A stretch of DNA of 64,000 bases from Candidatus Omnitrophota bacterium (GTDB lineage Bacteria > Omnitrophota > Gorgyraeia > Ghiorseimicrobiales > Ghiorseimicrobiaceae), in the NCBI GenBank assembly GCA_030681595.1, contig JAUXSB010000003.1, positions 223,207-287,206 on the forward strand, written 5' to 3'. Below the pieces are notes generated by a model that was not told the origin of the DNA, ran no database searches, and was given only the letters and a program-made list of their open reading frames with translations. Below are positions 2,894 to 55,852 of the stretch, piece by piece (positions within the stretch are counted from its first letter, which is position 1; every line of letters starts with the position of its first letter). The position numbers and the translations under genes are program-made.

Positions 2894-3014
2894 AAGAGAC
2901 GTAACTTGTATGTCGGAATTTAACCCAGCACTTATTTTTACTAAAAATAAGTGCTGAATAAGTTCGGGCAGATAACTTATGTCGCCTTACAAGTTCCATA
3001 AGTTAAACCCTCCC
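2894..3014 (-). promoter_or_regulatory. L1 leader-family element upstream of prfA (box, hairpin 1, GGTTAAATTCC, hairpin 2).
   Basis: Perfect hairpin CAGCACTTATTTTTA/CTAAAAATAAGTGCTG at ~2926-2956. The box CTTATGTCGCCTTACAAGTTCCATAAGTT at ~2975-3005 is homologous to 51447-51482. Confidence 0.5.
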
Positions 3015-3212
3015 TTATTTCTTATATTTCTTCATAAATTTATCGACTCTTCCTGCCGAATCCACAAACTTCTGCTTGCCCGTAAAAAACGGATGGCATT
3101 TAGAGCAAATTTCTACACGGACATTCTGTTTAGTTGAACGAGTATGGATTATCTCCCCGCAAGCACAAATAATCGAAGCCTCCTGATAATTTGGATGAAT
3201 TTTATCTTTCAT
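3015..3212 (-). CDS. rpmE: 50S ribosomal protein L31.
   Basis: Translates as [26 protein letters not shown]...CHPFFTG. The AAGGAGAG RBS sits upstream of the internal ATG. The ORF-track start at 3239 is a GTG extension reaching into the leader. Confidence 0.9.
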
Positions 3213-3407
3213 TTTATTTTCTCTCCTTAATGACGACACGATTTACGGAATGTTAATGAGATAAATCGTATGCCGGAATTAATCCCGCTGAGTGTGCCAA
3301 AATTGTAGACCCTCTGGAATTTCTTTGAAATTCCGAGGACTTAGTCCCGGAAATTCTTCGAATTTCTCGGGGATAGAATTTTGGCACACTCAGCGGAATA
3401 TCCTCAC
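3213..3407 (-). promoter_or_regulatory. L1 leader-family element upstream of rpmE, expanded by nested hairpins.
   Basis: A 20-bp inverted repeat CCGCTGAGTGTGCCAAAATT ... AATTTTGGCACACTCAGCGG (~3286-3400) encloses three internal hairpins. GGGATTAATTCC, a second hairpin and TCATTAAGGAGAG are shared with the rho leader. Confidence 0.5.
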
Positions 3408-4655
3408 TTATTGGTTCATGCTCGCCAAGAACTCTTTATTGTTTTTAGTTTTAGACATCCTGTCAATAAGAAGCTCCATTGCTTCCGCCGAATTCAAATC
3501 ATTCAGCACCTTCCTTAATATCCATATTTTCTGCAAATCATCTCCTTTTATCAACAGCTCCTCTCTTCTTGTATTTGAACGCTTAATATCAATAGCGGGA
3601 TAAATCCTGCGCTGGAATAAATTCCTGTCTAACTGCAGTTCCATGTTGCCGGTCCCTTTAAATTCTTCAAAAATAACTTCATCCATGCGGCTGCCAGTAT
3701 CAACCAAAGCGGTCGCGATAATAGTAAGGCTGCCTCCTTCCTCAACAGCCCGGGCGGCGCCAAAGAAACGCTTAGGTTTATGTAAAGCATTAGAATCTAC
3801 CCCGCCGGATAAAATTTTCCCCGAATGCGGCACTACTGTATTATATGCCCGGGCAAGGCGGGTAATACTGTCCAGTAAAATCACCACATCTTTACCATGT
3901 TCAACAAGCCTCTTTGATTTTTCAAGGACAATCTCGGCAACTTGAACATGGCGCTCTGCCGGCTCATCAAATGTAGAAGAGATAACTTCCCCTTTAACAC
4001 TCCTCTGCATATCGGTAACCTCTTCCGGCCTTTCATCAATAAGCAAAACTATCAAAACTACATCCTGATGATTTTGGGTAATGGAATTGGCAATTTTTTG
4101 TAAAAGCACGGTTTTACCGCTATAGGGTTGTGCCACAATTAAAGCACGCTGCCCCTTGCCTAAGGGAGTAAGCAAATCCATTATACGGGTAGATATCTCT
4201 TCGGGATTAGCCTCAAGAAGAAAACGCTCATGCGGATAAATAGGCGTTAAGTTGTCAAACAATATTTTATCTTTTGTGCTCTCCGGGTTTTCAAAATCAA
4301 CCGCTTCAACTTTTAAAAGCGCGAAATATTTTTCCCCCTCTTTGGGCGGGCGGATCTGCCCGCTTACGGTATCGCCGGTCTTTAAGTCAAATTTTCTTAT
4401 CTGGGATGGCGAAATATAAATATCATCCGGGCAAGGCAGGTAATTATAATTCGGGCTCCTTAAGAATCCAAAACCATCTGGAAGGATTTCCAAAACCCCC
4501 TCCCCGAACATCAGCCCTTCTTTTTCTGCCTGCGCCTGTAAAATTTTGAAAATCAAATCCTGTTTTTTTAAGCCGCTGACGCCGTTAACATTTAAATCCT
4601 TTGCTATTTTGCTCAATTCGGTAATCTTTTTTTCTTTTAAGTTTATGATATCCAT
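3408..4655 (-). CDS. rho: Transcription termination factor Rho.
   Basis: 415-aa protein with an N-terminal RNA-binding domain, a Walker A motif (QPYSGKT) and a RecA-like ATPase core. Confidence 0.95.
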
Positions 4656-4767
4656 CTTTTACCCTCTCCTTAATGAACACATAAGTTACAGAATGAAATG
4701 ATGTAACTTATAAGTGTGAATTAATCCCGCCGAGTGTGTCAAAATTGTAGAATAGAATTTTGACACA
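4656..4767 (-). promoter_or_regulatory. L1 leader-family element upstream of rho, with a candidate -10 TATAAT.
   Basis: In sense orientation: cgTATAATgtgtcaaaattctattctacaattttgacacactcggcGGGATTAATTCac-[hairpin acttataagttaca...tgtaacttatgtgt]-TCATTAAGGAGAGggtaaaagATG. Confidence 0.5.
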
Positions 4768-5382
4768 TTATACGAGGCGGGACAACGACTCCCATACTTT
4801 TTTTACCTCTTTTTCGGTATCCGCCAATGTCTTATTATTATCTATCACGTAATCCGCTATTTTGATTTTTTGCGATAGCGGCAGCTGAAATTTTATACGC
4901 CTTAAAATATCAGCCTTTTTTAAACCAAATTTATCGCCGAGGCGCAAAATCTGTGTGCGCCTATCGGCTTTTACTACTATTAATTTATCCATTGCTTTAT
5001 GCAGGCAAGTTTCAACAAGTAAAGGAGCGTCTAAAATAATTATTTTCCCCGGGATATTTTTTTGCGCACGCCTGACTTCGCTTTTTATTCTTTTTATTAT
5101 TGGCGGGTGAATTATTTTCTGATAATCCGATAATTTTTTTGTATCATTAAATACAATATCTGCGATCTTTTTACGGCTTATTGATTTATCCTTATTTAAT
5201 ACCTGCCGGCCAAATCTTAAAATTATTTTCCTGTATATTCCGCTTTTTCGCGACATGAGTAAACTATGCGCTATGTTGTCTGCGTCAATAATTTTTGCCC
5301 CTAATTTCCTAAAAATACCCGCTACCGTGGTCTTTCCTGTGCCAAACCCGCCAGTAAGGCCGATAATAAGCGCCTTGCGCAT
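4768..5382 (-). CDS. coaE: Dephospho-CoA kinase.
   Basis: 204-aa protein with a GLTGGFGTGKTT P-loop at the N-terminus. It lies immediately downstream of polA. Confidence 0.85.
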   Translation of the reverse strand: MRKALIIGLTGGFGTGKTTVAGIFRKLGAKIIDADNIAHSLLMSRKSGIYRKIILRFGRQVLNKDKSISRKKIADIVFNDTKKLSDYQKIIHPPIIKRIKSEVRRAQKNIPGKIIILDAPLLVETCLHKAMDKLIVVKADRRTQILRLGDKFGLKKADILRRIKFQLPLSQKIKIADYVIDNNKTLADTEKEVKKVWESLSRLV

Positions 5383-8854: not shown

Positions 8855-11038
8855 TCAGATCAAAGACGGTAAACTAAGTGCTGGATGAGCGGTTTTCTCT
8901 AAATAAGCAAGGAGTTCTTCACTGGTAGTAGCAACGGTTTCATCAGCGATTTTATCCACGAAATCAGGAATACCTATTTCTTCCGAGCGTTTCTTTAACT
9001 TATCCGCCAGCACTTCCTTTAACTCTTTAGGCATCCAGACCAAACGCGCCAGCCCCCCTTCAGAAGATATAAACTTCTTGCTAACAATATAAAGTTTACC
9101 GACGCCTAAAAATCCCGGCGTCTGGACCCCTCCGCCGACAGATCCGGCTAAAGTAGTAAAAGTCATCCCGGAAGGGGTCATTCCGGAATAATCACGGTGC
9201 ACTACCATCACGCCGTTTACTTCCGGAATAATCGCTAAGATGCACTCAAAACATCCGCAAGACGTCTGAGGTGAATCCATAATTGAATACATGCTTACCT
9301 GATTTATTGTTTTATTGGACTTCTGGTTAAAAAAATCATTAACACTCTTCCACTGTCCCAATCTTTCATCTATAGGGCTGGCTTTTTTAATCGGCTGGTT
9401 TGGCCCCGAAGGCATAATCTCATAAGATGCCTTGCCGTCCAGCCAAGAATATGCCCCGCATAAACCTAGCCGCTCCGGAGTTATTACGCAGACATGGTTG
9501 GGGGCAAATGACTGGCAAAGCGTGCAGGAGTAAAAAGTATCCACGCTTTCATCGGTCATTCCCATTAGCCGCTCATCGCGCTCGGCATACGCCTCTTTTG
9601 CCTCGCTAATCAAACGTTCCACATCTTCTTGTTTTGTGTAGAGATTTACGCTCACCTTATCTACTATCGCGCTATATTCTTCATGGAGTTTGGCGTGGAG
9701 AATTGTTCCAATATGTTTTAGGCGGAATCCTTTATTAGCCGCGTCTTGGCTGATGCGAACCCAGTTCATATCGCGCTGGCCTACATGCATTAGCCCCATA
9801 GCGCAGTTAACGTAATGATGAATCTGGCGCTCTAAAATAGGTTCAAAATCCTTCTGCATTTTGCGCCCGGCAACATCTACAATTATTGCCAGCGGCATAG
9901 ACTTAGAACCCTGCGGCAGGTTATCGATATCCGGCCCTATTACTTCTATCTGTCCGTCATTAACTTTATCCAGGCTTGAACTTTTTAGATACTCAAAAGC
10001 AAGCGATGACTTCGAACCAAACTCGGCAAACAGCTGCTCTTTTCTAACACGTTCTCCTTCAAACGCAGCCCCGTATAAAACAGGAATAGGTATACTCGAT
10101 ACTTTTACTTTTACACCACGGACCTCTATGCACCTGGGCACAATTTTTTTATAATCCAACTCTTTAACTAAGGCCTCATAAGTGGTCACACCGGTCGGAT
10201 GGATTTCGGGGATATCCGTGTCAGCAATTACAGGGAAACCCATGTTTATTGCGCCTGCCCCTGTGGCGTATTTTTCATCATCGACTAAACCCAAAGTAAG
10301 GCCAAAAGCAAATACCCTTTCCTTGCAATACAATAAGCACTTCTTGGCATCACCGGGCTTAAGCCCGCCGAAGGTAAGCGCAGACCTTATCGCCCAGTTT
10401 AAAGGATAAATCGCAGAAATTGTATCACGGCCATAAGGAACAATATAGTTATCCCAACCCATCTGCACATCTTCTTCTTTCAACTGGTCGACTATTGAAC
10501 GCCCATTGGTAGATGAACCCACAAAAATTAAAATATTTCTTTCCTGAAGTTGGCGGATTATATCAAGGGCAACCTGGTTACTGGGGGCAGCCCCCAAAAT
10601 TGCGGCGAAACCCGGCATGCGGCCATCTACAAGCTGAATACCCAATGAACGCATAATCGTATCCGTAAAAAAACCATTGCAATCTGGCTGGGGTTCAGTC
10701 CTATAAAGATAACGTATGCCCACGATTATTTCCTCGGCCAATAAAGTGGATATCCCGGCATCTAAGGCATCCCCCAGATAAGGCAGCCAAAGCTTATCCG
10801 AAGGGATATTCTGCGGTAAGAGCTTCTTGGTATATTCGAGAATTCTCTTAGCATCTCCCAATGTCCTTACCTCTGCCGCCAAAAGAGCATTGGCCATGGG
10901 GAAATAAAAGGCGGTTTCCGGAAACTCAACCTTCTGTGACTCCCCCTTATCGGAAATAGCTTTGATTAAATCTTCTTCTGCCTGCCTAACTATTTTTTGT
11001 GCCCCACGAATTACTGCCTGCGCGACTATCCTAGACAT
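8855..11038 (-). CDS. acsB: CO dehydrogenase/acetyl-CoA synthase, acetyl-CoA synthase subunit (AcsB/CdhC).
   Basis: 727-aa protein with a CGCFE motif (Cys-Gly-Cys A-cluster ligands). The length and sequence match AcsB, and it sits in a cluster with metF, folD and fhs. Confidence 0.8.
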   Translation of the reverse strand: MSRIVAQAVIRGAQKIVRQAEEDLIKAISDKGESQKVEFPETAFYFPMANALLAAEVRTLGDAKRILEYTKKLLPQNIPSDKLWLPYLGDALDAGISTLLAEEIIVGIRYLYRTEPQPDCNGFFTDTIMRSLGIQLVDGRMPGFAAILGAAPSNQVALDIIRQLQERNILIFVGSSTNGRSIVDQLKEEDVQMGWDNYIVPYGRDTISAIYPLNWAIRSALTFGGLKPGDAKKCLLYCKERVFAFGLTLGLVDDEKYATGAGAINMGFPVIADTDIPEIHPTGVTTYEALVKELDYKKIVPRCIEVRGVKVKVSSIPIPVLYGAAFEGERVRKEQLFAEFGSKSSLAFEYLKSSSLDKVNDGQIEVIGPDIDNLPQGSKSMPLAIIVDVAGRKMQKDFEPILERQIHHYVNCAMGLMHVGQRDMNWVRISQDAANKGFRLKHIGTILHAKLHEEYSAIVDKVSVNLYTKQEDVERLISEAKEAYAERDERLMGMTDESVDTFYSCTLCQSFAPNHVCVITPERLGLCGAYSWLDGKASYEIMPSGPNQPIKKASPIDERLGQWKSVNDFFNQKSNKTINQVSMYSIMDSPQTSCGCFECILAIIPEVNGVMVVHRDYSGMTPSGMTFTTLAGSVGGGVQTPGFLGVGKLYIVSKKFISSEGGLARLVWMPKELKEVLADKLKKRSEEIGIPDFVDKIADETVATTSEELLAYLEKTAHPALSLPSLI

Positions 11039-11059
11039 AACTTACTCCTCTTATAATAA

Positions 11060-12316
11060 TTATAAATAAATTTTTTCTTCTTTTTTTTTAATTAATTCCG
11101 CGATCTTGGCATAACTTAAGTTCGCGTCCAATAAATCATCCTTTATTTTAGAAATATCAGCCTTTTCTTTAATTAATCTTAAATAAAGACCGCTGTTTCT
11201 AATATCCCCCACCAACAAAGCGCCGATTAACCGGCTGCCTTTCAAAACCAATTTTTTATAAAGATTTTTTTCTCTATCCAGAGAGGAAGCCGCCTCTAAT
11301 TCAGTGTCAAAAGCCCCCATAGAAACAAGCGGAAGGCCGAAAAAGTCAACGGAGTTCATCCCTAGCGAACCGGTATATTTAATATTTTCCCCCGCAATAT
11401 TTAAGCCGGCAATCCTTCCCTGCTCTACCGCGCAGGGCCAAAGCGCATTATTCTCGTATTTATCTGCGGTTAAATCAAATGTCTCGGCCACATCACCTGC
11501 GGCATATATATCATTTACGCTTGTACGCATACTTTCGTCAACCAGAATACCTTTGTCTGTCTTAATATCTGTTTCAGAAATTAATTTAATATTAGGCGCT
11601 ACTCCTTTGCCCACAATCACCAAAGAACAACCTATTGCTTTTCCGCTATCAAGCTTTACCGCCCTTAAATCTCCATTTCCGATAATTTCAGAAATATCCG
11701 TATTCAACATTACTTCAATACCATTCTTCTGAAAACAGTTCAAGAATAATTCTGAAGCCGTCTTATCGGCAATCTGGGATAAAATCCTGCCTGATTTAAC
11801 AATTACTTTTACGTCAAGCTTGCGCTTATTTAAGCCATAAGCTGCCTTTAAACCTATTAACCCGCCGCCCAAAACACAAGAAGTATGCGAAATAGATGCG
11901 ATGGTAATAATTTCTTTTGTGTCTTTAATAGTACGAAAACCGAAGACTCCTCTTTTAGTTACACCTTTTAATTCCTTGGGTATTTTAGGCGATGAGCCAG
12001 TAGCGATAATTAGGCTATCATAACTAATTTGCGATTTATCCTCTAAAATGATTCTTTTCTTCTTGCTATCGACACGCTCTACTTTTTTTTCCAAGAGAAG
12101 CTCAACATTATTGTCTTTATAAAATTTGGCATCGCGGTAAGTTAAATCTTTCTCTGCTACCGTTCCGGATAAATAATTAGAAATTAAACACCGGCAATAG
12201 GCTAAATACGCCTCGTCAGAAATCACCGTGATTTTACTTTCACGGTCTCTTGAACGTATCCCCTCGATTGCCGCAACCCCTGCCGCAGAATTACCGATAA
12301 TAACGATATTTTTCAT
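11060..12316 (-). CDS. FAD/NAD(P)-binding pyridine nucleotide-disulfide oxidoreductase family protein.
   Basis: 418-aa protein with an N-terminal GxGxAG dinucleotide-binding motif (IIGNSAAG) and a second Rossmann motif (VLGGGLIG). It lies between the metV-like gene and acsB. Confidence 0.7.
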   Translation of the reverse strand: MKNIVIIGNSAAGVAAIEGIRSRDRESKITVISDEAYLAYCRCLISNYLSGTVAEKDLTYRDAKFYKDNNVELLLEKKVERVDSKKKRIILEDKSQISYDSLIIATGSSPKIPKELKGVTKRGVFGFRTIKDTKEIITIASISHTSCVLGGGLIGLKAAYGLNKRKLDVKVIVKSGRILSQIADKTASELFLNCFQKNGIEVMLNTDISEIIGNGDLRAVKLDSGKAIGCSLVIVGKGVAPNIKLISETDIKTDKGILVDESMRTSVNDIYAAGDVAETFDLTADKYENNALWPCAVEQGRIAGLNIAGENIKYTGSLGMNSVDFFGLPLVSMGAFDTELEAASSLDREKNLYKKLVLKGSRLIGALLVGDIRNSGLYLRLIKEKADISKIKDDLLDANLSYAKIAELIKKKEEKIYL

Positions 12317-12811: not shown

Positions 12812-12944
12812 TAATTAAATACCCAATCACCAATTACCAATTACCAAATCCCAATTAATTCCCACATTGTTCAATTTCCAATTTTTTTATATTGGTCATT
12901 GGTAATTTATTTAACATTGGCAATTGGGCATTGATCATTTTTAG
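12812..12944 (-). promoter_or_regulatory. L4 CCAAT/ATTGG-array leader upstream of the metV-like ferredoxin gene.
   Basis: Sense: CCCAATTGCCAATGTTAAATAAATTACCAATGACCAAT...AATTGGAAATTGAACAATGTGGGAATTAATTGGGATTTGGTAATTGGTAATTGGTGATTGGGTATTTAATTA-ATG. Confidence 0.45.
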
Positions 12945-13853: not shown

Positions 13854-14120
13854 AAATGAATCCGGTGAATTTTGGAGCGCCCGCCACACTAATTGTCGGG
13901 CAGGAATTGACGATTTTACCTAGCCTCCCCGGAATACTTTATGGTTTTGATTGAAAGCGCATTAGAAAACTTTTGGCAAATGCCAGCCCGACTTAAGTCT
14001 GGCGGGTCTGCAAAGTGTTACGACGAGTGAATGACGAAACTGACCGAAGGGAATTTCGTCAAATGAACGAATCGTAAACTGTAACAAACGGCAAAAGATT
14101 TCAGCGCCGAAAGCGAAACC
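13854..14120. ncRNA. R1 copy A: structured multicopy intergenic element (5' box, variable region and a core of ~130 nt), upstream of metF.
   Basis: The 5' box AAATGAATCCGGTGAATTTTGGAGC is followed by the core GCATTAGAAA...GATTTCAGCGCC. The core is homologous to copies B and C, with compensatory changes in stems. It also carries an inserted 28-nt palindrome (GCCAGCCCGACTTAAGTCTGGCGGG). Confidence 0.5.
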
Positions 14121-15841: not shown

Positions 15842-15898
15842 GCTTACTCCTTGTCAGCAAGACAACACTCGCGCAATTCCGCTTAGCGCGGGGTGTCG
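15842..15898 (-). promoter_or_regulatory. L2 leader repeat immediately upstream of the folD start.
   Basis: Sense: GACACCCCGCGCTAAGCGGAATTGCGCGAGTGTTGTCTTGCTGACAAGGAGTAAGC-ATG. It overlaps the last 6 codons of fchA. Confidence 0.55.
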
Positions 15899-16422
15899 AT
15901 ATTAACCAGCGCCGAATTAAACCCCGCGCTCAAAAGTTCCGCCCCGGCTAAAACATCATTTATCAAATACGTATTGCCCTTCTCTGCCAAAGCCGGACAA
16001 AACTGCAGGGCTTTATAGCAAAGAATAGAAATTTCCTTAACTATCTTTTGGGATTCTTTTTTGGCGGCTGCCTTTATTCTTTTATCACTTGTCCCGGCAT
16101 ATTTAGAATAGACGATAACATCCAAATCCACTAACTCTAAAAATCTCGCTCGAAAACTCTCCGTCTTAGAAAGTATCCGCTTAATTTCTTTTTCGTATTT
16201 TTTATATTTTTCTTTGCCTAATGTGAAATTGGCCACCATCGACAAAAGCGCGCATCCCAAAGCGCCGGAAAGTGCCGCGACACTACCTCCACCGGGAGCA
16301 GGTTTTTTGGCGGCTAAATCATCAAGATATTTTTTAATAGATTGATTTTTATATAACATTTTGTTAGATATATGCTGTGTCATTTGAGCGAATTGCAATT
16401 TTAGCCAAGCACGCACAGGCAT
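15883..16422 (-). CDS. fchA: Methenyl-THF cyclohydrolase / formiminotransferase-cyclodeaminase-type protein (FchA-like).
   Basis: Cyclodeaminase/cyclohydrolase family sequence (KKPAPGGGSVAALSGALG). The true start may be the internal Met (MLYKNQ...) at ~16359. The 3' end overlaps a copy of the L2 leader repeat. Confidence 0.7.
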   Translation of the reverse strand: MPVRAWLKLQFAQMTQHISNKMLYKNQSIKKYLDDLAAKKPAPGGGSVAALSGALGCALLSMVANFTLGKEKYKKYEKEIKRILSKTESFRARFLELVDLDVIVYSKYAGTSDKRIKAAAKKESQKIVKEISILCYKALQFCPALAEKGNTYLINDVLAGAELLSAGFNSALVNIDTPR

Positions 16423-18267: not shown

Positions 18268-18324
18268 GTTTCTCCTTGTCAGTTAGACAACACCCGCGCG
18301 CTTCCGTTTAACGCGGGGTGCCCG
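18268..18324 (-). promoter_or_regulatory. L2 leader repeat immediately upstream of the fhs start.
   Basis: Sense: GGGCACCCCGCGTTAAACGGAAGCGCGCGGGTGTTGTCTAACTGACAAGGAGAAAC-ATG. Confidence 0.55.
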
Positions 18325-18690
18325 TTAATAACTAAACCTTTCGCTTAAAGGGAAGGCGTCAGTAAATAGGTTGATTTTCTTCCCGGAAATAGATACAATA
18401 TCGAATCTCGCGGCTGAATCCATTAAATTTTTAGATTTTAGGTATGAAATGGCGAGGACTGATAGTTTAAATTGTTTATTTTTATCTACTGCCTCGTAAG
18501 GCTGGCCGAAAAAACTAGTCACCCGTGTTTTTACCTCAATGAAGCAGAATACGTTTCTATCTTTTGCTATGATATCTATCTCGCCGAATCTCTTAAGGCG
18601 CCAATTGCGCTCTAAAATTTTATACCCTTTTTTCTTTAAAAAATTAACTGCTTCGTCTTCGCCGGCTTTGCCTAAAGCAATATTATGCAT
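18325..18690 (-). CDS. yraN: YraN family (UPF0102) endonuclease.
   Basis: 121-aa protein with the GExDIIAxD...FxEVKxR motif. Confidence 0.8.
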   Translation of the reverse strand: MHNIALGKAGEDEAVNFLKKKGYKILERNWRLKRFGEIDIIAKDRNVFCFIEVKTRVTSFFGQPYEAVDKNKQFKLSVLAISYLKSKNLMDSAARFDIVSISGKKINLFTDAFPLSERFSY

Positions 18691-19699: not shown

Positions 19700-20496
19700 T
19701 TAATTACTCCTTCCTTATTTTCCGTAGAATTTAAAAGATCCGGCCTTTTTAGGCGCGTAACCTTAAGCGCCTGATATTTACGCCATTCATCGATTTCCTT
19801 ATGATTTCCGGATAAAAGTACTTGGGGAACCTTCCTTCCGCGAAAATCAGCAGGCCGGGTATATTGCGGATACTCTAATAGATTACCCTCAAATGACTCA
19901 AATTTCAAGGAATTTTTATCGCCCAACACTCCCGGTATAAGCCGTGTCACAACATCCACTAAAACCATTGCCGCAACCTCGCCTCCGGTTAAAACATAAT
20001 CACCGATAGAAATTTCACTGTCCGCTAAATTATCCCTTACGCGCTCGTCTATGCCCTCGTAATGCCCGCAGATTAGAACTAGATGTTTATTCTTAGCTAA
20101 TTTTTTGACTAAACCTTGAGTTAAAGTTTTACCTTGGGGACTAAGCAGAATAATTTTTGTGCTTTGCACTTTGCGTTCTGCACTTTGCGCTTTGCGTTTT
20201 TTTGACGCATGACGCATGGCGCATGGCGCATGGCGCAAAATATTTTCTACTGCGCGAAATATTGGCTCTGGGCTCATTACCATGCCGCTTCCGCCGCCAA
20301 AAGGGCGGTCGTCAACTTTTCTGTGTTTATCTAAAGTATAATCTCTTAAGTTGTGAATATGAATTTTTAATTTTCCTTTATTCTGCGCGCGCTTGATAAT
20401 AGATTCATCCAACACGGCTGAAAACATATCGGGAAAAATTGTAATAATATCTATACGCATATTACCTGCAAGGATAGACTTTCCTATTACTCTCAA
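19696..20496 (-). CDS. trmD: tRNA (guanine37-N1)-methyltransferase TrmD.
   Basis: 266-aa protein with the TrmD SPOUT fold sequence. It carries an in-frame insertion of about 25 aa ([24 protein letters not shown]) encoded by heptamer tandem repeats. Confidence 0.9.
20159..20240 (-). repeat. Heptamer tandem repeats inside trmD.
   Basis: (CATGGCG)x3, (CATGCGT)x2 and several CGCAAAG/TGCAAAG units. They are in frame and encode the inserted [24 protein letters not shown] segment. Confidence 0.9.
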
Positions 20497-20505
20497 GGAA
20501 ATGTC

Positions 20506-21075
20506 CTAAGGGGTTTTCTTCATCTGCCACAACAGCCAACTGCCCGAACCTAAACAAATTAACATAAAGATAACGGCCAAACAACGGATAAAAAAACCCA
20601 AAGTAACATCAAGTCCGATTATATTCAGACGGTTTAATAAATAATTCCAGTCGTGCACCACATCTTCCATCCCAAACAACGCTGCCAACGGCAGATTCAT
20701 AGTGCCGGCATCTCCAACGTATCTTGCTACGCCAAAAAGCGCCGTAGCAAGCCACCCGAAGGAAAGCGTCACGGCAAAAAAATCCTCTTGCCGGTAAAAA
20801 TTTATAACTCCGAATAGCGGAGCGAATAATTCAAATAGCGTCCCGCCCAAGATATTAATAAATTGGCCAAAAGGAGAAAAAAGTAAATGCCCCAACTCAT
20901 GTATGCCTAAATTAAGCGGCCCAAGAATATCGCTATAGCCCGGATTAAACAAATGCCGGATAAAAATATATAAAAAACCCAACAGAAGCGGAAAACGCAC
21001 CAGCCAGTTCCTGCCACGGCAGTACTCAACCGCTTCAGAACACAACAATTCTATTGCTTCTTTAATAATCTTCAA
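20506..21075 (-). CDS. Hypothetical polytopic membrane protein with an HELGH motif.
   Basis: 189-aa protein with several hydrophobic helices and a single HExxH-like motif. No family could be assigned. Confidence 0.4.
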   Translation of the reverse strand: MKIIKEAIELLCSEAVEYCRGRNWLVRFPLLLGFLYIFIRHLFNPGYSDILGPLNLGIHELGHLLFSPFGQFINILGGTLFELFAPLFGVINFYRQEDFFAVTLSFGWLATALFGVARYVGDAGTMNLPLAALFGMEDVVHDWNYLLNRLNIIGLDVTLGFFIRCLAVIFMLICLGSGSWLLWQMKKTP

Positions 21076-22234
21076 CCTTCGTTTTGGCTATGCTGTAAGC
21101 GGCAAAAAATTCTTTTTTAAAATCAGAAAACCTGTCTTCGCTGATTGCCGCCCTGGCTTTCTCCATAAGAGAAAGATAAAAATAAATATTATGATACGAA
21201 ACCAGTATCGCCCCTAAAATCTCGCTTGCGTTTAATAGATGCCTTATATACGAGCGCGAATAATCCCTGCAAACAAAACAGTTGCATTCCTCATCTAACG
21301 GCCTTAAATCATTAATGTAAGGGGAATTCCGCACCACAATTTTTCCGCGCCAAGTAAAAACCGTGCCGTTTCTGCCGTATCTTGTAGGCACAACGCAATC
21401 AAACATGTCTACGCCGCAATCTACCGCTGAGATCATATCTTCCGGAGTTCCTACGCCCATTAAATAACGAGGAAATTCTTTAGGTAGGTATTCGCAGGTC
21501 GTTTGTACGATATTATACAACAAATCCTGCGGCTCGCCAACTGAAATTCCGCCTAAAGAATATCCATCAAACCCTATTTTTGCCAATTCTTCCGCGCAAT
21601 ATTTCCTTAAATCCGGATAAGTCGCGCCTTGTACAATACCAAATAATAAATTTCGGGATGCGGGATACGCCAGCCCGACTTCATTCTGGCGGGGGATGCG
21701 GGATTGACTAAGCGCTTCTTTAGAACGCTTTGCCCATTGAATGGTCCGCCTCATCGCTACTTCTGCTTCATCTCTAACGCATGGATAATGCACGCATTCA
21801 TCCAAGGGCATTAAAATATCCGAACCCAGAGTAAGCTGTGTCTCAATTACGCTTTCCGGGGTAAGGGTATGTTTCGAGCCGTCGATATGCGACTGAAATT
21901 CCACTCCCCTATCGGCCACCTTTCTTAATTTTGCCAGGCTAAATACCTGATATCCGCCGGAGTCAGTTAAAATCGGCTTATCCCAGTGCATAAATTTATG
22001 TAAACCCCCGGCATTTTTAATTACCTCTAAGCCCGGGCGCAGGTACAAATGATAAGCGTTGGCAAGGATAATCTGCGCAGAGCACTCTTCCAAGTCGCGG
22101 ACAGTGAGCGCTTTGACTGTGCCCTGTGTGCCTACCGGCATAAAAATCGGCGTATCAATTACGCCATGCGCTGCCTTTAATTTCCCTAGGCGCGCATTTG
22201 AATTCTTATCCTGATGAATTAAGTTAAAAGACAT
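21062..22234 (-). CDS. tgt: Queuine tRNA-ribosyltransferase.
   Basis: 390-aa protein with the Tgt TIM-barrel sequence and zinc-site CxCxxC...H. It contains an in-frame palindromic insertion at ~21655-21705. Confidence 0.9.
   Translation of the reverse strand: MSFNLIHQDKNSNARLGKLKAAHGVIDTPIFMPVGTQGTVKALTVRDLEECSAQIILANAYHLYLRPGLEVIKNAGGLHKFMHWDKPILTDSGGYQVFSLAKLRKVADRGVEFQSHIDGSKHTLTPESVIETQLTLGSDILMPLDECVHYPCVRDEAEVAMRRTIQWAKRSKEALSQSRIPRQNEVGLAYPASRNLLFGIVQGATYPDLRKYCAEELAKIGFDGYSLGGISVGEPQDLLYNIVQTTCEYLPKEFPRYLMGVGTPEDMISAVDCGVDMFDCVVPTRYGRNGTVFTWRGKIVVRNSPYINDLRPLDEECNCFVCRDYSRSYIRHLLNASEILGAILVSYHNIYFYLSLMEKARAAISEDRFSDFKKEFFAAYSIAKTKVEDY
21655..21705 (-). repeat. In-frame mini-palindrome in tgt, flanked by 12-nt direct repeats.
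   Basis: GGGATGCGGGAT-acg-CCAGCCCGACTTCATTCTGGCG-gg-GGGATGCGGGAT. The palindrome is nearly identical to the 28-nt insertion in R1 copy A (~13982-14010). Confidence 0.85.
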
Positions 22235-24533: not shown

Positions 24534-25707
24534 TGCCTATTTCCTCTATTTTTGCCCCGGGATAATAGAATTTAAGGATATCCTGATATTTATAGCCTTT
24601 TCTAGAAGCAAAATACGCCCCCCACTGGCACATCCCCACGCCATGGCCCCAGCCGAAACCTTCAAAATATATATTATCTCCGGAAAATGTTAAGTCAAAA
24701 TTTGTGCTGCGGATATCCGTTCCCCCGATTATCTGGCGAAAATCCTTTGCCGAGATGATATGATTAGCGGATTTCGATTTTAACTTTAATTTTTTTACCC
24801 TGCCTGACTTATCCCTGCCCAAAATTTCTATTGCCTCTAAAGAATCAATGCTATATCCGGATTTATTCAATTTATTAATAAGCTCCGAGCGAGATAAAGT
24901 TTTTTGCCATTTGAAATGCTTCGACTTTACGCAAAAATTGCAATCAACTCCTTTAAGCGGGACAAGATTCATATCCCAAAGCTGGGCCGCATCTTCTGTC
25001 TTTCCCCCGCAGGTGGCATGAAAGTATGCCGGAAAGATTTTTCCCTTATAAGTCAAAACCAATCCCTTGGTATGCTCAACAGCAGAATTAGTCCGGTAAC
25101 GCTCGGCGTCTTTACCGCCATACACTTGAGAATAAATATCGCTGGTTACATCGTAATCTTTATCTTTACTCACTTCTTTCTGATAAAGTACGTATGTACG
25201 CGTAGCTACTGCCTGCGCGCAAAGAGCCTCTTTCGGCCAATGATGCGATACCTCATGAAATAAAACCCCCTTGACGTAATCTTCCAAATTTAGACAATTT
25301 ATTACCGAGAAGCTTAGGTCATTTTCTTTTCTTATAATCAGCCCGCCGCGCAAAGGGCGGTTGTTTAAATAAAATAAGGCGCTTTCCGGAAAAATAACTA
25401 TCCTGTTTTCCCTCAAAAGATTATCGCCTATTGTTATACCGTCTATATCCATATATACTTTCGCATTTATGTTTTCCCCTGCCCCTAAGGCGTTTTTTGT
25501 TTTTAAAGATTCTATTTTGTAATTGCCCTTTATATAAAGTTCAAAAGACGGAGCATTTTTTAAAATAAGCACGCGTACATAATTGCCAGTCTCGGATTGG
25601 GCATAAGCAAAAGAAAGGTAGCAAGTAGCAAGTAGCAAGTAGCAAGTAAAAAATAAAAAAATAAATAAGCTGGCGACTGGCGACTGGCGACTGGCGACTG
25701 TTTTCAT
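24520..25707 (-). CDS. SpoIID/LytB domain protein (amidase enhancer), secreted.
   Basis: SpoIID-family C-terminal region. The start was chosen at Met7 (MKTVASRQ...). The signal-peptide coding region contains two arrays of four heptamer repeats. Confidence 0.75.
   Translation of the reverse strand: MKTVASRQSPVASLFIFLFFTCYLLLATCYLSFAYAQSETGNYVRVLILKNAPSFELYIKGNYKIESLKTKNALGAGENINAKVYMDIDGITIGDNLLRENRIVIFPESALFYLNNRPLRGGLIIRKENDLSFSVINCLNLEDYVKGVLFHEVSHHWPKEALCAQAVATRTYVLYQKEVSKDKDYDVTSDIYSQVYGGKDAERYRTNSAVEHTKGLVLTYKGKIFPAYFHATCGGKTEDAAQLWDMNLVPLKGVDCNFCVKSKHFKWQKTLSRSELINKLNKSGYSIDSLEAIEILGRDKSGRVKKLKLKSKSANHIISAKDFRQIIGGTDIRSTNFDLTFSGDNIYFEGFGWGHGVGMCQWGAYFASRKGYKYQDILKFYYPGAKIEEIGNVAF
25617..25700 (-). 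repeat. Two adjacent heptanucleotide tandem arrays inside the SpoIID-like signal-peptide coding region.
   Basis: (AGCAAGT)x4 at ~25617-25648 and (CTGGCGA)x4 at ~25670-25700, separated by an A-rich tract. Confidence 0.9.
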
Positions 25708-26959: not shown

Positions 26960-27240
26960 AAATGAATCCGGTGATTTTAGAGCTTTTTTTGACGATTTTA
27001 GTAAAACATGCTAATAATTTTTTAGCGGGTGGCGAGGTTTGTGCTTTAAGAAATCCTCCACCTCACAAACTATATATTTTGCTGCGGGATCTGGAAAAGT
27101 GCATTAGAAAGCTTTCGGCAAAAGTGCGCAAGGAATTACGGCGAGTGAATGACGGAACTGACCGAAGGGAATTCCGTCAAATGAACGAGTCGTAAACCGT
27201 AGCGCCCGGCGAAAGATTTCAGCACGTGGACAGTATCCCG
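26960..27240. ncRNA. R1 copy B, located between a hypothetical gene and ruvB.
   Basis: The 5' box AAATGAATCCGGTGATTTTAGAGC lies at ~26960. The core spans 27101-27228: GCATTAGAAAGCTTTCGGCAAAAGTGCGCAAGG...GACGGAACTGACCGAAGGGAATTCCGTC...GATTTCAGCAC. Confidence 0.5.
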
Positions 27241-30097: not shown

Positions 30098-30275
30098 AAT
30101 AATGAAAATCTTTTAAAGCCGCACATTAGAAATTTTTCGGTAAAAGTGCGCAAGGAATTACGGCAACGACCCATCCTTCTCGGATGGGTACCCCGACGGA
30201 ACTGACCGAAGGGAATTCCGTCAAATGAATGAGCCGTAAACCGTAGCGCACGGCGAAAGATTTCAGTGCGGCGGA
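30098..30275. ncRNA. R1 copy C, located between infB and trpS.
   Basis: The 5' box is shortened to AATGAAAATCTTTTAAAGCC. The core spans 30121-30273 and contains an extra 35-nt hairpin insertion (CAACGACCCATCCTTCTCGGATGGGTACCCCGACG). Confidence 0.5.
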
Positions 30276-36786: not shown

Positions 36787-37860
36787 TCACTTTATAAATA
36801 TCTCTTTTAACAACACTTCCACGCATTTATTGGCAGACACCTTTTTTATCGGCTTTCCGTGCTTAAACAATAACCCGTCTTTTTTACCAAAGGCAATACC
36901 TATATCTGCTTCTCTTGCCTCTCCCGGTCCGTTGACGACACAGCCCATAACGGCCACCTTCATTGAGTTAGCGTTTAGCGGATAGCGTTTAGCGGATAGC
37001 CTCTTTTCTAAATTATTAACGATATTTACCAAATTTACTTCGCATCTGCCGCAGGTAGGGCAACTGATAATCTCAGGGCCAAAATTGCGTAAACCTAACG
37101 AGCCCAAAATAACCTTTGCCGCGCTTACTTCGTCTTGGGGCTTTTCCGTAAGCGATACCCTGATAGTATCTCCAATCCCTTCCAATAAAAGCGCCCCCAA
37201 GGCAATGCTTGATTTTATTGCGCCTGCATACGGGCTTCCTGTAGCGGTAAGGCCTAAATGCAAAGGATAATTGGTAAGTTTGGCCATTTTACGATAAGCT
37301 TCTATGGTGTCAAGGATGTTTGAGGCTTTCAATGAAACCACGATATTATAAAAACCAAAACCCTCTAACATCTTTATGTAATCTTGCGCGCTTTTCACCA
37401 TTCTTTCTACACTTGACCCCTGACCCCTGACCCCTGACACTTCTTTTTTTACCGAGCCGGAATTAACTCCGACCCTAATCGGAATTCCGGCTTTTTTTGC
37501 CGCTTCTGCTACAGTTTTAATCTGGCGAGCTTTAAAAATATTTCCCGGGTTTAGTCTTATCTTATCCGCACCGTTTTTTATCGCTAAAAGCGCTAATTTA
37601 TAATCAAAATGAATATCCGCAACTAAAGGAATATTTATTTTACGTTTAATCTTGCTTATCGCCGCGGCCGATTCTTTATCCTTAACGGTAACTCTTATTA
37701 TTTCGCAGCCGGATTTTTCTAGCGACTTTATTTGCCTAACAACCGCGTCAACATCCTTAGTATCGACCTTTACCATTGACTGAATGATGATAGGATTACT
37801 GCCGCCTATCTTCACTCTACCTATTTTTATTTCTCTGGTTTTATGCCTGTCTATCTGCAT
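36787..37860 (-). CDS. ispG: 4-hydroxy-3-methylbut-2-enyl diphosphate synthase.
   Basis: 357-aa GcpE family protein. It carries two in-frame repeat insertions at ~36969-37000 and ~37417-37437. Confidence 0.9.
   Translation of the reverse strand: MQIDRHKTREIKIGRVKIGGSNPIIIQSMVKVDTKDVDAVVRQIKSLEKSGCEIIRVTVKDKESAAAISKIKRKINIPLVADIHFDYKLALLAIKNGADKIRLNPGNIFKARQIKTVAEAAKKAGIPIRVGVNSGSVKKEVSGVRGQGSSVERMVKSAQDYIKMLEGFGFYNIVVSLKASNILDTIEAYRKMAKLTNYPLHLGLTATGSPYAGAIKSSIALGALLLEGIGDTIRVSLTEKPQDEVSAAKVILGSLGLRNFGPEIISCPTCGRCEVNLVNIVNNLEKRLSAKRYPLNANSMKVAVMGCVVNGPGEAREADIGIAFGKKDGLLFKHGKPIKKVSANKCVEVLLKEIFIK
36969..37000 (-). repeat. 14-bp tandem repeat (GCGTTTAGCGGATA)x2 inside ispG, identical to the L5 leader 3'-arm units.
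   Basis: It encodes ...RLSAKRYPLNAN... The same 14-mer pair occurs in the purA leader at 44283-44330. Confidence 0.85.
37417..37437 (-). repeat. (CCCCTGA)x3 heptamer array inside ispG.
   Basis: 21 nt, in frame, encoding a GQGSSV-type low-complexity stretch. Confidence 0.85.
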
Positions 37861-44282: not shown

Positions 44283-44363
44283 ATTTTTATGGTTTAGCGG
44301 ATAGCGTTTAGCGGATAGAAAAATAAATTCGCTATACGCTATACCCTATACGCTCTACGCTAA
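44283..44363 (-). promoter_or_regulatory. L5 inverted 9/14-bp repeat leader upstream of purA.
   Basis: Sense: AATTAGCGTAGAGCGTATAGGGTATAGCGTATAGCG-AATTTATTTTT-CTATCCGCTAAACGCTATCCGCTAAACC...ATG. The 5' arm holds (TAGCG)n and the 3' arm (CGCTA)n. Confidence 0.45.
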
Positions 44364-47368: not shown

Positions 47369-48537
47369 GACCTCGCGATTAATAGAACCACCCCCAACCC
47401 AAAAAATAAAACTGCCGTAATCAATTTTACCGCCGACAGGTGCCTGCGGGCAGCCTTTTCAAAATGAATTGATGTCAGTCCAAAAAATGCCAACACAAAT
47501 ACCGCTACTAAAGGAAGGATAAACATCAGGTTATAAAGCAAAAGATAAGCCATTGCCTTTATCCTTAAATCCGGAACTTTTAAAATATACGCTATTGTGG
47601 GCAAATATAGCTGTCCGGTACAAAATAACTCTAAAACTGAAACCAGGAATCCACAGGATATACTTGCGGCAATGAAGGCAAACAGCGGCTTATCTTTACC
47701 TTCTTTTCTTATCAGCTCCGCCCTTATTGTGCCCTGTATCTTTCTTTTAATCAAAACCGGAAGCTTTAAAATTATCCTATCCGCATCCTTTGTCTTATTA
47801 TAAATCCAAAAATCATACAAGCTGACTAAACCGACAGCAAAAGCAAATAGCGCGATAAGCCGATAAAATATCTGCGAGAAATAACTAAATACTTCAAGGC
47901 TCCTTAAAGCCTTGAATAATCCCGCGCCGATTAAGAGATAAGTTATATATACGACTATGATAAATAAGCTTCCTATAATAAGCATATCTCTTTTTCTGTA
48001 TCCGGCAAATGATAAAAAAGAAATAAAAAATACCATTACCGTAAAAGCGCATGGATTTACGCCGTCTATAAAACCCACTGATAAGACTGTCAAAGAGCCG
48101 AAACTTAAAAACCTTCTTATAAATGTTTCTTTTGTGGCTGCGATATCCGCGAAAACTTCTACTTTTATAACGGAATTTACGCTATCACTGGTATAGATAT
48201 ATAGCGGCTTTGAAATTTTTCCTTCAAAACCCGTGGTATTAAAGTTAAATGTTACCTCTTGCCGTGCGCCTACGGCAAGCTCGACTTTGCTTTTAGGGCT
48301 AAGCACGGTAAAACAACTGCAGCTTAAGGTCTCAACACTTATCTTAACCGGTAAACTGCTGTGGTTTTCAACAAAGAAACTCTGGGTTAAGGCAGCGCCT
48401 TCCCCTACCTTGCCTAAATCTAACCTGTTATCTTCTAAGGTGGTGGTGATATTTTCCGCAAAAACAAAAGAAAAACTACAGAGAACAAAAAGAATAAAAC
48501 TATAAACTATAAACTGTAAACTGTAAACTTTTTTCAC
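47365..48537 (-). CDS. DUF1573-domain / DsbD-CcdA-family thiol:disulfide interchange membrane protein.
   Basis: 390-aa protein with a signal peptide, a periplasmic beta-rich domain, then 6-8 TM helices with an NPCAF motif typical of CcdA/DsbD. Confidence 0.6.
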   Translation of the reverse strand: MKKVYSLQFIVYSFILFVLCSFSFVFAENITTTLEDNRLDLGKVGEGAALTQSFFVENHSSLPVKISVETLSCSCFTVLSPKSKVELAVGARQEVTFNFNTTGFEGKISKPLYIYTSDSVNSVIKVEVFADIAATKETFIRRFLSFGSLTVLSVGFIDGVNPCAFTVMVFFISFLSFAGYRKRDMLIIGSLFIIVVYITYLLIGAGLFKALRSLEVFSYFSQIFYRLIALFAFAVGLVSLYDFWIYNKTKDADRIILKLPVLIKRKIQGTIRAELIRKEGKDKPLFAFIAASISCGFLVSVLELFCTGQLYLPTIAYILKVPDLRIKAMAYLLLYNLMFILPLVAVFVLAFFGLTSIHFEKAARRHLSAVKLITAVLFFGLGVVLLIARS

Positions 48538-51281: not shown

Positions 51282-51489
51282 AGAGCCTCCTCAAATGAAC
51301 AGACAATTTATGGAACACGGAGTGCGAGATAAATTGTAGGACGAAGTCCGTCTGTGAATTTGGCCCAGCACTAATTTATTCAAATACCAACTAAAATTTC
51401 TCAATCCAGCCAGCTCGGAAAATTAGTGCTGGGTAAATTCGGCCATACAACTTATGTCGCTCTACAAGCTCCCTAAGTTGTGGCTTTAC
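51282..51489 (-). promoter_or_regulatory. L1 leader-family element upstream of the class V aminotransferase.
   Basis: The same box (ACTTATGTCGCTCTACAAGCTCCCTAAGTT), hairpin CCCAGCACTAATT...AATTAGTGCTGGG, GGCCAAATTCAC, a second hairpin (ACAGAC...GTCTGT) and the TCATTTGAGGAGG RBS. Confidence 0.5.
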
Positions 51490-52128
51490 TTATTTCGTTG
51501 TAACAATCACTTCATCAATTATGCCGTATTTTTTCGCCTCTTCAGACGACATAAAATAATCGCGGTCAGAGTCTTTTTTTACTTTCTCGACAGATTGTCC
51601 TGTATGTTTGGCTAAAACCTGCTCTATCTTTTCTCTTAGGCGCAATATTTCATTTGCCTGGATAGAAATATCTGCCGCCGCACCCTGCACGCCTCCCCAA
51701 GGCTGATGTATCATAATCCGCGAATTAGGAAGCGCAAAACGTTTACCCTTTGTGCCGGCAGATAACAAAACCGCGCCCATACTTGCGGCCTGCCCCACAC
51801 AATATGTGCATACAACAGGTTTTACAAACTGTATAGTATCATAAATTGCAAGCCCTGCGGTGACAGAACCGCCCGGAGAATTAATGTAAACATTAATTTC
51901 CTTGTTTACATCCTCCATTTGCAGAAAAAGCATCTGGGCGATAACCAAATTTGCTACATTGTCATCTATGGGAGTGCCGATAAAAATAATCCGGTCCTTA
52001 AGCAAGCGGGAGTAGATATCATATGCCCGCTCAAACCCCCTGCTTGTCTGCTCTATAACCATGGGAACCAAAACCTGGCCAACTTCTGGCTCGCGCCTTT
52101 GAGAACTTGTATACATACTTACCCCCAT
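51490..52128 (-). CDS. clpP: ATP-dependent Clp protease proteolytic subunit.
   Basis: 212-aa protein with the ClpP Ser-His-Asp catalytic triad context (GQAASMGA). Confidence 0.95.
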
Positions 52129-52201
52129 TCTAGCGTTTAGCGGTTAGCGTATAGGGTATAGGAAAAATATAAACTAAACGCTATTCGCTATACGCTCTAC
52201 G
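52129..52201 (-). promoter_or_regulatory. L5 leader upstream of clpP.
   Basis: Sense: AATTAGCGTAGAGCGTATAGCGAATAGCG...CTATACGCTAACCGCTAAACGCTAGAATGGGGGTAAGT-ATG. It shares the AATTAGCGTAGAGCGTATAGCG box with the purA leader. Confidence 0.45.
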
Positions 52202-53080
52202 CTAATTTTCTGTCCACTCCGCCTCCCTTAAAAGGAACTCCATTACTTTTGCGGTGTTGTGTTTTTCGTCTAATTTTATGTTTTCTAATTCAGAAACTTT
52301 GTCCAAAATAAAATAAATTTTTAGGTCCTTTATCGCTACTTCACGCAGGCTTCCTTCAACTTCTTTCTTTTTTTCTTCGATTTTTTCCTTAGGCATCCCC
52401 TGCTGCATCAGGCGGTATTCCAAAACATGCAGCCTCTCTTTAAGCTCGCGCTCAATAACAGATACCGGCAACTCGATTTCAGAATTGCCGATAAGAAAGT
52501 CAACTACCTGTACCTCGTGTTTGTTGCGCGCATTTTCCGAAACAGCAAGAAATAATTGGTTCCTGACAATCTCGTGCAGATTAGCTAGTGACGGATAACC
52601 CAAGCTTTTTGCGAGGTTATCATCAATTGCCTCAGCTTTTTTTTCTTTCTTTATGCTTTCCAAGGCTTCCTTAATTTTATCATCGGTTATTTCTACCGGT
52701 TCCCTTTTTATTTTTATGGCTTTATATTTTTTAATCTTTACCTCGGGTTTTACCTCCACTATCGCTTTAAAAGAAAAACTATCCGCTTTTAAATTGACTT
52801 CGCTTATCTGGGGATGGTCAATGACAAAGATGTTTTCCTGTTTGACAGCCTGTTCATATAAGCCTTCTACCAGATATTGGCTCACCAAAGACCTTGCGGT
52901 ATCATGAAATCTCTTTTCTAGTATATCGCGCGGTATTTTTCCCGGCCTAAATCCGGGAACCTTGGATTCCTCATTTATCTGTTTATAAACATCTTCGAAT
53001 TTACGGGCAACTTCGTCCTTGCCCACCCCAACGCTCAATTCCACTTTTGACTTAGCGATTTTTTTTACTGTAACATTCAC
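52202..53080 (-). CDS. tig: Trigger factor (short form, no recognisable FKBP PPIase domain).
   Basis: 292-aa protein with a GTG start. The N-terminal ribosome-binding domain (GFRPGK signature) and the C-terminal arm domain are present. A G9 tract lies immediately upstream of the start. Confidence 0.8.
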   Translation of the reverse strand: MNVTVKKIAKSKVELSVGVGKDEVARKFEDVYKQINEESKVPGFRPGKIPRDILEKRFHDTARSLVSQYLVEGLYEQAVKQENIFVIDHPQISEVNLKADSFSFKAIVEVKPEVKIKKYKAIKIKREPVEITDDKIKEALESIKKEKKAEAIDDNLAKSLGYPSLANLHEIVRNQLFLAVSENARNKHEVQVVDFLIGNSEIELPVSVIERELKERLHVLEYRLMQQGMPKEKIEEKKKEVEGSLREVAIKDLKIYFILDKVSELENIKLDEKHNTAKVMEFLLREAEWTEN

Positions 53081-55795: not shown

Positions 55796-55852
55796 ATTGT
55801 CAGTTAGACAACACTTGCGCAATACCGCTTAGCGCAAGGTGTCAGTACTAAA
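55796..55852 (-). promoter_or_regulatory. L2 leader repeat immediately upstream of the nadA start.
   Basis: Sense: GACACCTTGCGCTAAGCGGTATTGCGCAAGTGTTGTCTAACTGACAAT-ATG. This copy lacks the AGGAG. Confidence 0.5.

Follow-up and report, generated by a model that had tools for sequence, protein, structure and literature searches.

A short hairpin unit at two sites in an Omnitrophota contig

We analysed a stretch of 64,000 nucleotides (hereafter the window) of contig JAUXSB010000003.1, forward-strand positions 223,207 to 287,206, from the Candidatus Omnitrophota bacterium assembly GCA_030681595.1. It carries two copies of a GC-rich hairpin unit of 24 nucleotides (nt). One lies inside R1, a rod-like hairpin repeat of ~130 nt that occurs three times in the window (copies A, B and C); the other lies in frame inside tgt, the gene for tRNA-guanine transglycosylase. 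The features concerned are listed below in window coordinates.

13955 to 14112, minus strand: R1 copy A, which hosts the unit (repeat family D1/D4)
13982 to 14005, plus strand: 24-nt hairpin unit GCCAGCCCGACTTAAGTCTGGCGG in R1 copy A, with G as the next base (14006); a 24-column gap in copies B and C
21062 to 22234, minus strand: tgt, host gene of the second unit, reading frame intact, open reading frame (ORF) of 390 residues
21655 to 21668, plus strand: GGGATGC GGGATAC, left half of a heptanucleotide array in the variable loop of tgt
21669 to 21692, plus strand: 24-nt hairpin unit GCCAGCCCGACTTCATTCTGGCGG inside tgt; its coding (minus) strand gives the 8 codons RQNEVGLA
21693 to 21706, plus strand: GGGATGC GGGATTG, right half of the heptanucleotide array in the variable loop of tgt
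27097 to 27230, minus strand: R1 copy B, an empty site for the unit (repeat search, alignment and consensus fold)
30119 to 30274, minus strand: R1 copy C, an empty site for the unit, with a 22-nt hairpin insert of its own at 30169–30190

A preliminary description of this DNA had reported near-identical palindromes at the two places, and the likeness holds. The 25-mer GCCAGCCCGACTTAAGTCTGGCGGG at 13982–14006 recurs at 21669–21693 as GCCAGCCCGACTTCATTCTGGCGGG, with two mismatches (23/25 identity), on the same (plus) strand and 7.7 kb away. These are the only two window matches at up to three mismatches, against none in 100 dinucleotide-preserving shuffles, and an nhmmer profile search found no third copy in the 64-kb window. 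As tgt is on the minus strand, its coding strand reads the second copy as CGCCAGAATGAAGTCGGGCTGGCG, the reverse complement, just as had been written. The word palindrome fits in part: a 5-bp stem (GCCAG/CTGGC) can be drawn, but the symmetry is imperfect, alternative registers are possible, and the folding energy as DNA, about −5 kcal/mol, corresponds to a z-score of only −1.5 to −1.7. An H-type pseudoknot (CCAG/CTGG with CCCG/CGGG) was judged, by reasoning alone, sterically implausible, since it would leave no nucleotides in either connecting loop.

Empty sites in R1 and tgt

Alignment of the three R1 copies leaves a single 24-column gap, that is, exactly 24 extra bases in copy A, which bears out the earlier placement of the unit inside copy A and its absence from B and C. 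Excising GCCAGCCCGACTTAAGTCTGGCGG from copy A restores GGCAAAT/GTCTGCAAAG (the slash marks the junction); copy B reads GGCAAAA/GTGCGCAAGG, with zero bases duplicated or lost. The orthologous R1 on L011, a contig from a relative, is also without the unit. The R1 consensus fold, drawn from four sequences, is a rod of 43 pairs with compensatory changes at 12 of these; the unit is placed at a boundary between helix and internal loop, and in copy A it is predicted to fold as a side hairpin of its own. Neither the unit nor R1 matched an Rfam family, at the gathering threshold or at E up to 1–10.

The three R1 copies have same-strand genes as neighbours, one lying upstream of metF, one downstream of ruvB and one between infB and the next gene. 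L011 has the copy at the infB site and lacks that at the metF site, and L136, a second relative, has no R1 at any of the three sites; this presence and absence among relatives implies that R1 is itself an insertion-type element, akin to a miniature inverted-repeat transposable element (MITE) or a small RNA. The site of copy A gives no unit-free comparison in L011 or L136, which have no R1 there. The 22-nt hairpin of copy C, ACCCATCCTTCTCGGATGGGTA (30169–30190), sits in an internal loop, is unrelated to the 24-nt unit, is unique in the window, and has no counterpart in copies A and B or in the orthologous R1 of L011. A conserved motif of ~25 nt, AAATGAATCCGGTGA(A)TTTT(G)GAGC, adjoins copies A and B (window 13854–13879 and 26960–26983) and recurs in intergenic regions of L011 at about 5009–5030 and about 5285–5310; it could be a promoter-like or repeat element.

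The gene that hosts the second copy clearly encodes Tgt (Pfam TGT, E = 9e-160; PDB TGT matches, E = 1e-126), and its product is 100% identical to Tgt of an NCBI Omnitrophota metagenome-assembled genome (MAG). L011 is syntenic with the window at about 10.8–32.2 kb and 77–92% identical in DNA over aligned blocks (84.9% in the tgt block). Relative to its orthologue, the window tgt has exactly 24 extra bases, the 8 codons RQNEVGLA at residues 182–189, with the frame intact as the preliminary description had read it. On the coding strand L011 has AATCCCGTACCC/CATGTCCCGTACCCCGAAAT where the window has AATCCCGCATCC, the 24 nt and then CGTATCCCGCATCCCGAAAT; in protein, SRTP/CPVPR stands against SRIP(RQNEVGLA)YPASR. 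An ancient origin in place, with orthologues already carrying the unit, had been offered as the alternative. Instead, tgt is empty in L011, L136 and a third relative, L134 (92%, 79% and 75% Tgt identity), and R1 is empty in copies B and C and in L011. Across 21 kb of syntenic sequence, no copy of the unit was found in either of two relatives.

In the predicted structure, Tgt residues 182–189 form a coil with pLDDT <50 between a helix (154–178) and a strand (196–201), in a disordered surface loop encoded by the heptanucleotide array. When the protein is aligned with Z. mobilis TGT they fall within a gap of 10 residues, and the segment that holds them varies in length among Omnitrophota Tgt proteins. 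Both window copies are clean 24-nt additions with neither duplication nor loss of target, and the alignments show two precise, lineage-specific insertions of one 24-mer.

Two copies of GGGATGCGGGAT, at 21655–21666 and 21693–21704 and 38 nt apart, bracket the tgt unit. The preliminary description was right that they exist; as an insertion signature they fail. They belong to a four-copy array, GGGATGC GGGATAC, unit, GGGATGC GGGATTG, which is unbroken in L011 (GGGGTAC GGGACAT GGGGTAC GGGATTC) and present as a diverged version in L134; period-7 identity over the tgt junction is 0.81. A target-site duplication (TSD) made of GGGATGCGGGAT is ruled out because L011 and L134, where the site is empty, have the array too, and the array must therefore be older than the insertion. 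Its halves are identical within each genome and different between genomes, which we take to reflect homogenisation inside the tandem array. In L136 the same loop of tgt (gene at 10001–11173) contains (CATAGTC)x4, the A-rich AAAAATAATAAAAAC and (TATSGAC)x4, an inverted pair of heptamer arrays that is part of the translated protein. The tgt loop is a hot spot for short-repeat insertions.

A family of near-identical units in at least four phyla

Whether the sequence was confined to the two window sites had been left as a possibility. We scanned one genome per species with the exact pattern GCCAGCCCGACTTNNNTCTGGCG, and metagenomes with a degenerate exact pattern. The source genome was covered by the 64-kb window and every unit elsewhere by ~5 kb of surrounding sequence, metagenome loci took their taxonomy from the names of best protein matches, and family-wide counts (units, lengths, flanks, covariation) rest on the matches listed. 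The genome scan gave 10 loci. In eight of them the likeness runs on past the pattern itself; these belong to a further Omnitrophota genome, Winogradskyella sp. A3E31, four contigs of Scalindua, one Ignavibacteriaceae MAG and a bacterium without classification. The other two lie in GC-rich genomes without the downstream G(G) and are probably chance matches. The metagenome scan added at least 120 stretches, so the unit is far from restricted to the window.

Over all loci there are at least 134 units, 96 of 27 nt, 18 of 26, 18 of 24 and two of 25. The canonical unit is the 27-nt GCCTGCCCGACTTTGTCATTCAGGCGG, usually followed by G(C), and the dominant form is GCCTGCCCGACTT(T/C)GTCATTCAGGCGG; as a profile the family reads GCCWGCCCGACTT-N3-6-TCWGGCGG. 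Variation falls mostly in the spacer and few copies are diverged, the stem and CCCGACTT being extremely conserved across phyla. Positions 4 and 22, which the search left free, covary (T/A 102, A/T 7, T/T 11, A/A 1; Fisher p = 3.7e-6), in support of a stem of 5 bp, GCCWG/CWGGC.

Hosts belong to at least four phyla, namely Omnitrophota, Planctomycetota (Scalindua), Bacteroidota and Patescibacteria, and the host loci are AT-rich (median GC 41%). Some units are singletons, while others form head-to-tail arrays with a 27-nt period (6.1 copies in L052, for example), cap longer hairpins or lie in frame in genes for conserved enzymes. Flanking sequence beyond the unit is not common to the loci; nothing outside it is shared, so the unit itself is the repeated entity, and a larger parent element was rejected on the same ground. 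One IMG/VR contig carries a unit, and plasmid and phage records gave no match. In the searched literature the core 12-mers hit unrelated PCR primers only, and keyword searches returned no description of the unit. By these comparisons the two window sequences qualify as members of a large and very homogeneous family of 24–27 nt that spans at least four phyla.

Some Scalindua loci show additional structure. In Scalindua rubra (L003) two inverted units 8 nt apart, at about 700–735 and 675–697, form a REPIN-like doublet of one CCTG/CAGG variant and one CCAG/CTGG variant, and L003 shares extra flanking stems (CCGTTC...GGACGG) with two other Scalindua contigs, L006 and L008.

Because most hosts are metagenome-assembled and a short GC-rich unit stands out in AT-rich contigs, an assembly chimera or contaminating synthetic or adapter sequence might be suspected. 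We regard such an artefact as highly improbable. Identical tgt DNA, insert included, was recovered from raw reads by an independent assembler (Logan, SRR13727519); units come from NCBI, ENA, JGI and Logan assemblies and from a RefSeq genome record that bears a strain name, Winogradskyella sp. A3E31; and the covariation of positions 4 and 22 and the frame-keeping of coding copies, described next, also speak against it.

Units in frame within conserved genes

Stop-free stretches of at least 150 codons contain 42 of 126 units. None of the three forward frames of the 27-nt form contains a stop, nor does one of its reverse frames, which reads ARLNDKVGQA; in the 24-nt form the corresponding reverse frame gives the RQNEVGLA of tgt. 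Units lie within Pfam domains of CTP synthase (GATase), NadD (two tandem units), ATP synthase alpha (AtpA), an SDR dehydrogenase, Fe-ADH, LeuRS, a histidine kinase (HATPase_c) and RecG. All Pfam-confirmed coding copies examined are 24 or 27 nt long and keep the reading frame.

Two enzymes provide empty homologues for direct comparison. In Patescibacteria, CTP synthase (PyrG) reads ENS(RLNDKVGQA)KLKTKN, nine residues longer than the empty forms ENS/KLKTKN and KTY/NLQTTS, and unit-free PyrG homologues are up to 86% identical; as in tgt, a heptamer array (AAAACTN) surrounds this unit. For the SDR dehydrogenase, NA(RLND(K/E)VGQA)STGSAG is found in two proteins of Chitinophagales type. No unit is present in the remaining homologues of the alignment (about 120 in all), which have NASTGSAG, something shorter or a different small insert. 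Taken with tgt, these alignments show the repeated in-frame presence of the unit in conserved genes whose orthologues are empty.

The SDR loop, which precedes HIINMGS (proteins P0241-P0360), shows graded small insertions among homologues, such as NASTGSAG, NASTLRQAQGSAG and longer forms, and this gradation suggests that small GC-rich insertions have recurred at a single permissive site. On a metagenome contig (L130), an adenine-deaminase-like amidohydrolase ORF is interrupted in frame by a unit with flanks (SLNPRLNEEVGQASKGE), and the interruption continues with a complete DUF559 endonuclease domain (Pfam E = 1.4e-32). No DUF559 domain was seen near any other unit, and the peptide encoded by tandem units had no Pfam match.

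A simpler account of the window would dispense with dedicated mobility altogether: the 24-mer was copied once between the two sites by template switching during repair or replication, as filler or a gene-conversion patch, and its likeness elsewhere reflects sequence that is easily generated or captured. The window has only two copies, on the same strand and 7.7 kb apart; microhomology at the junctions is 1–2 nt and G follows the unit in 92% of sites; no transposase was found within ~5 kb of the units; and short indels, some hairpin-forming, are common between the window and L011. What a single local copying event leaves unexplained is the existence of more than 130 near-identical units with unrelated flanks in four phyla, the tandem 27-nt arrays, and the independent in-frame insertions into PyrG and SDR proteins of other phyla. 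We therefore think it unlikely, while keeping template switching as a general copying mechanism among the routes considered below.

Selection for function could also hold such a sequence constant. Under this explanation the hairpin would bind protein or RNA, or serve as a stabiliser or a regulatory site, and would have spread through its function and been kept where useful, which would suit the extreme conservation of the stem and CCCGACTT, the restriction of variation to the spacer, and the independent branch that the unit forms in the R1 fold. Against it, contexts are unrelated and intergenic copies show no orientation bias towards neighbouring genes (40 opposite, 36 same). The coding copies lie in loops of unrelated enzymes with no obvious role for an RNA or DNA signal, close orthologues lack the unit, and no Rfam family matches it. 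As a full explanation we consider this quite improbable, somewhat more so than a one-off copy, although function and mobility are compatible with each other.

Insertion sites and candidate mobilising agents

We consider it likely that the two window sequences are copies of a 24-nt hairpin unit belonging to a widespread family of dispersed repeats, and that this family is non-autonomous mobile DNA. The clean presence and absence, the recurrence of the family and the in-frame insertions into genes all favour the mobile mini-element that had been proposed from the window. In outline, an agent acting in trans would copy the unit to new sites. Selection would then retain copies in permissive places only, such as intergenic DNA, loops of structured elements and surface loops of proteins, and the coding copies that survive would be those with an open frame and a length divisible by three.

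The insertion sites themselves show few common features. Conserved flanking bases are found only 3' of the unit, G at +1 (92%) and C at +2 (54%). Junctions have at most 1–2 nt of ambiguity or microhomology, and direct repeats of at least 7 nt flank 11% of sites compared with 3.9% of controls, a mild enrichment only. Insertion into heptamer arrays, as in tgt, was ruled out as a general rule, since arrays span the junction at only 2–4 of 117 sites.

As to how the unit is copied, our preferred guess, a tentative one that could easily be wrong, is that the hairpin is copied either by way of single-stranded DNA, as in the HUH/RAYT-IS200 type, or by a polymerase that switches template at the replication fork. 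The single-strand route would fit because there is no TSD and the unit is a hairpin; it fits poorly because there is neither a 5' target motif nor a nearby Y1 gene, and we rate it as doubtful. Template switching in replication or repair, the alternative route, is possible because junction ambiguity is only 1–2 nt.

Several observations weigh against mobility as the explanation. Predicted hairpins of the family are weak (−5 to −7 kcal/mol as DNA), and the 12 nt 5' of the unit carry no information at 109 sites. After clustering of all ORFs within ~5 kb of the unit at 131 loci, no transposase or recurrent neighbour protein emerged, only generic housekeeping families. A tblastn search with IS200 TnpA, which is a weak test, gave no match. 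The strict search patterns may miss family diversity or any master element, the window has only two copies in its 64 kb, and the case for movement is drawn from presence and absence between genomes that are ~85% identical in DNA.

Comparison with known small repeats

Mobile GC clusters of yeast and other fungal mitochondria are short GC-rich palindromes in an AT-rich genome and include an in-frame insertion into var1. They offer an analogy only, being organellar, eukaryotic, 30–50 bp long and of other sequences. Elements of the IS200/IS605 'peel and paste' group insert without TSD, 3' of a specific target of 4–5 nt. The unit resembles them in its clean 24- or 27-nt indels without TSD and differs in having no specific target on its 5' side.

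Closest in behaviour are the small dispersed repeats SDR4-6 of Nostocaceae cyanobacteria, reportedly described by Elhai et al. in 2008 (Genome Res 18:1484). They are regarded as mobile sequences of about 21–27 nt that are dispersed, in places also tandem, insert into other repeats and encode no protein (citing papers PMC5861425, PMC2884548 and PMC3116915), and their reported range is Nostocaceae only (PMC5861425). The unit is likewise short (24–27 nt), dispersed as well as tandem, nested in another repeat (R1) and found inside genes. Judged by description, it differs in being one nearly invariant sequence across phyla and in its hosts, which are Omnitrophota, Planctomycetota, Bacteroidota and Patescibacteria; no cyanobacterial locus was among the units retrieved.

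Repetitive extragenic palindromic (REP) elements and REPINs are short imperfect palindromes of 20–40 nt, mostly intergenic and without TSD, mobilised by RAYT (IS200-like Y1) transposases (PMC3116915). The unit shares their size class, imperfect symmetry and lack of TSD. REPs, however, are specific to a species or genus, extragenic by definition, high in copy number within a genome, mostly as inverted doublets, and found flanking a RAYT gene, whereas the unit is common to several phyla, is also intragenic (tgt and many members in ORFs) and has no conserved 5' tetranucleotide. The sequence covered has two singlets in the 64-kb window and one inverted doublet in Scalindua L003, and no RAYT was found within ~5 kb of more than 130 copies, the weak TnpA search included.

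The preliminary description had likened the unit to the Rickettsia palindromic elements (RPEs). These are palindromic repeats lying in frame in unrelated housekeeping genes, where they add a stretch of peptide without inactivating the protein (Ogata et al. 2000, as summarised in PMC10969869). They measure about 100–150 bp, encode a conserved peptide of 30–50 residues and are confined to Rickettsia. The comparison stands for behaviour, since the unit has also inserted in frame into conserved genes of different kinds whose orthologues are empty (tgt, PyrG, SDR). The unit does not belong to the RPE family: it is 24–27 nt long (8–9 residues), its hosts are free-living or episymbiotic environmental phyla, and its sequence is apparently unrelated. 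MITEs, at 50–500 bp with terminal inverted repeats, TSDs and derivation from a parent insertion sequence (PMC10969869), are similarly non-autonomous, structured, dispersed and sometimes intragenic in frame. The unit differs from them in its size and in having neither a TSD nor a parent element.

Other repeats in the window

Tandem Repeats Finder reported about 16 arrays of period 7 or 14 in the window, often paired around an A-rich spacer. Heptanucleotide arrays lie at 1308–1339, 1517–1548, 12817–12857, 20156–20237, 25618–25700, 36968–37000, 37414–37438, 44292–44362, 48497–48529 and 52174–52204. One pair consists of (GTAGCAA)x4.4, AAAAATAAAAAAATAAATAAG and (CTGGCGA)x4.4, and one pair lies inside a trmD-like ORF that is 28 residues longer than its L011 counterpart. 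These arrays recall the heptanucleotide tandem repeats (STRR) of cyanobacteria, which are also present in the genomes that bear small dispersed repeats.

Further dispersed repeats include a 50-nt intergenic repeat, TTGTCAGTTAGACAACACCCGCGCG...CGCGGGGTG, whose three copies (15851–15900, 18276–18325 and 55797–55846) consist of two adjacent hairpins and have a terminator-like look. Two more families, of 78 nt (2944–3021 and 51419–51496) and ~100 nt (3210–3309 and 4653–4751), show 74–80% identity.

Implications

Mobile repeats of such small size have been described in a handful of narrow lineages, as with REPs, the small dispersed repeats of cyanobacteria and the RPEs of Rickettsia. The unusual feature here is a 27-nt sequence that hardly varies across four phyla, among them Omnitrophota and Patescibacteria, which are poorly understood. 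It is found repeatedly in frame in core enzymes such as Tgt, CTP synthase, NadD, ATP synthase alpha and LeuRS. The copy in Winogradskyella sp. A3E31 would open the question to experiment if that strain is in culture.

At its most speculative, and we would not expect this to hold in full, the unit may be a hitherto unrecognised mobile DNA of pan-phylum range and one of the smallest known. Its near-invariant sequence would be dictated by a conserved enzyme acting in trans, or by a replication or repair activity of universal occurrence, copying the hairpin into single-stranded or slipped DNA; the arrays around the tgt, pyrG and L001 copies would be hot spots or by-products; and the unit would be a general source of loop insertions of 8–9 residues in essential proteins of uncultured bacteria. 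If the unit is indeed mobile, it points to copying machinery that is widely conserved or horizontally transferred. It would also supply a tag by which horizontal exchange between uncultured bacteria of the environment could be followed, and a concrete mechanism for the short lineage-specific loop insertions seen in conserved proteins.

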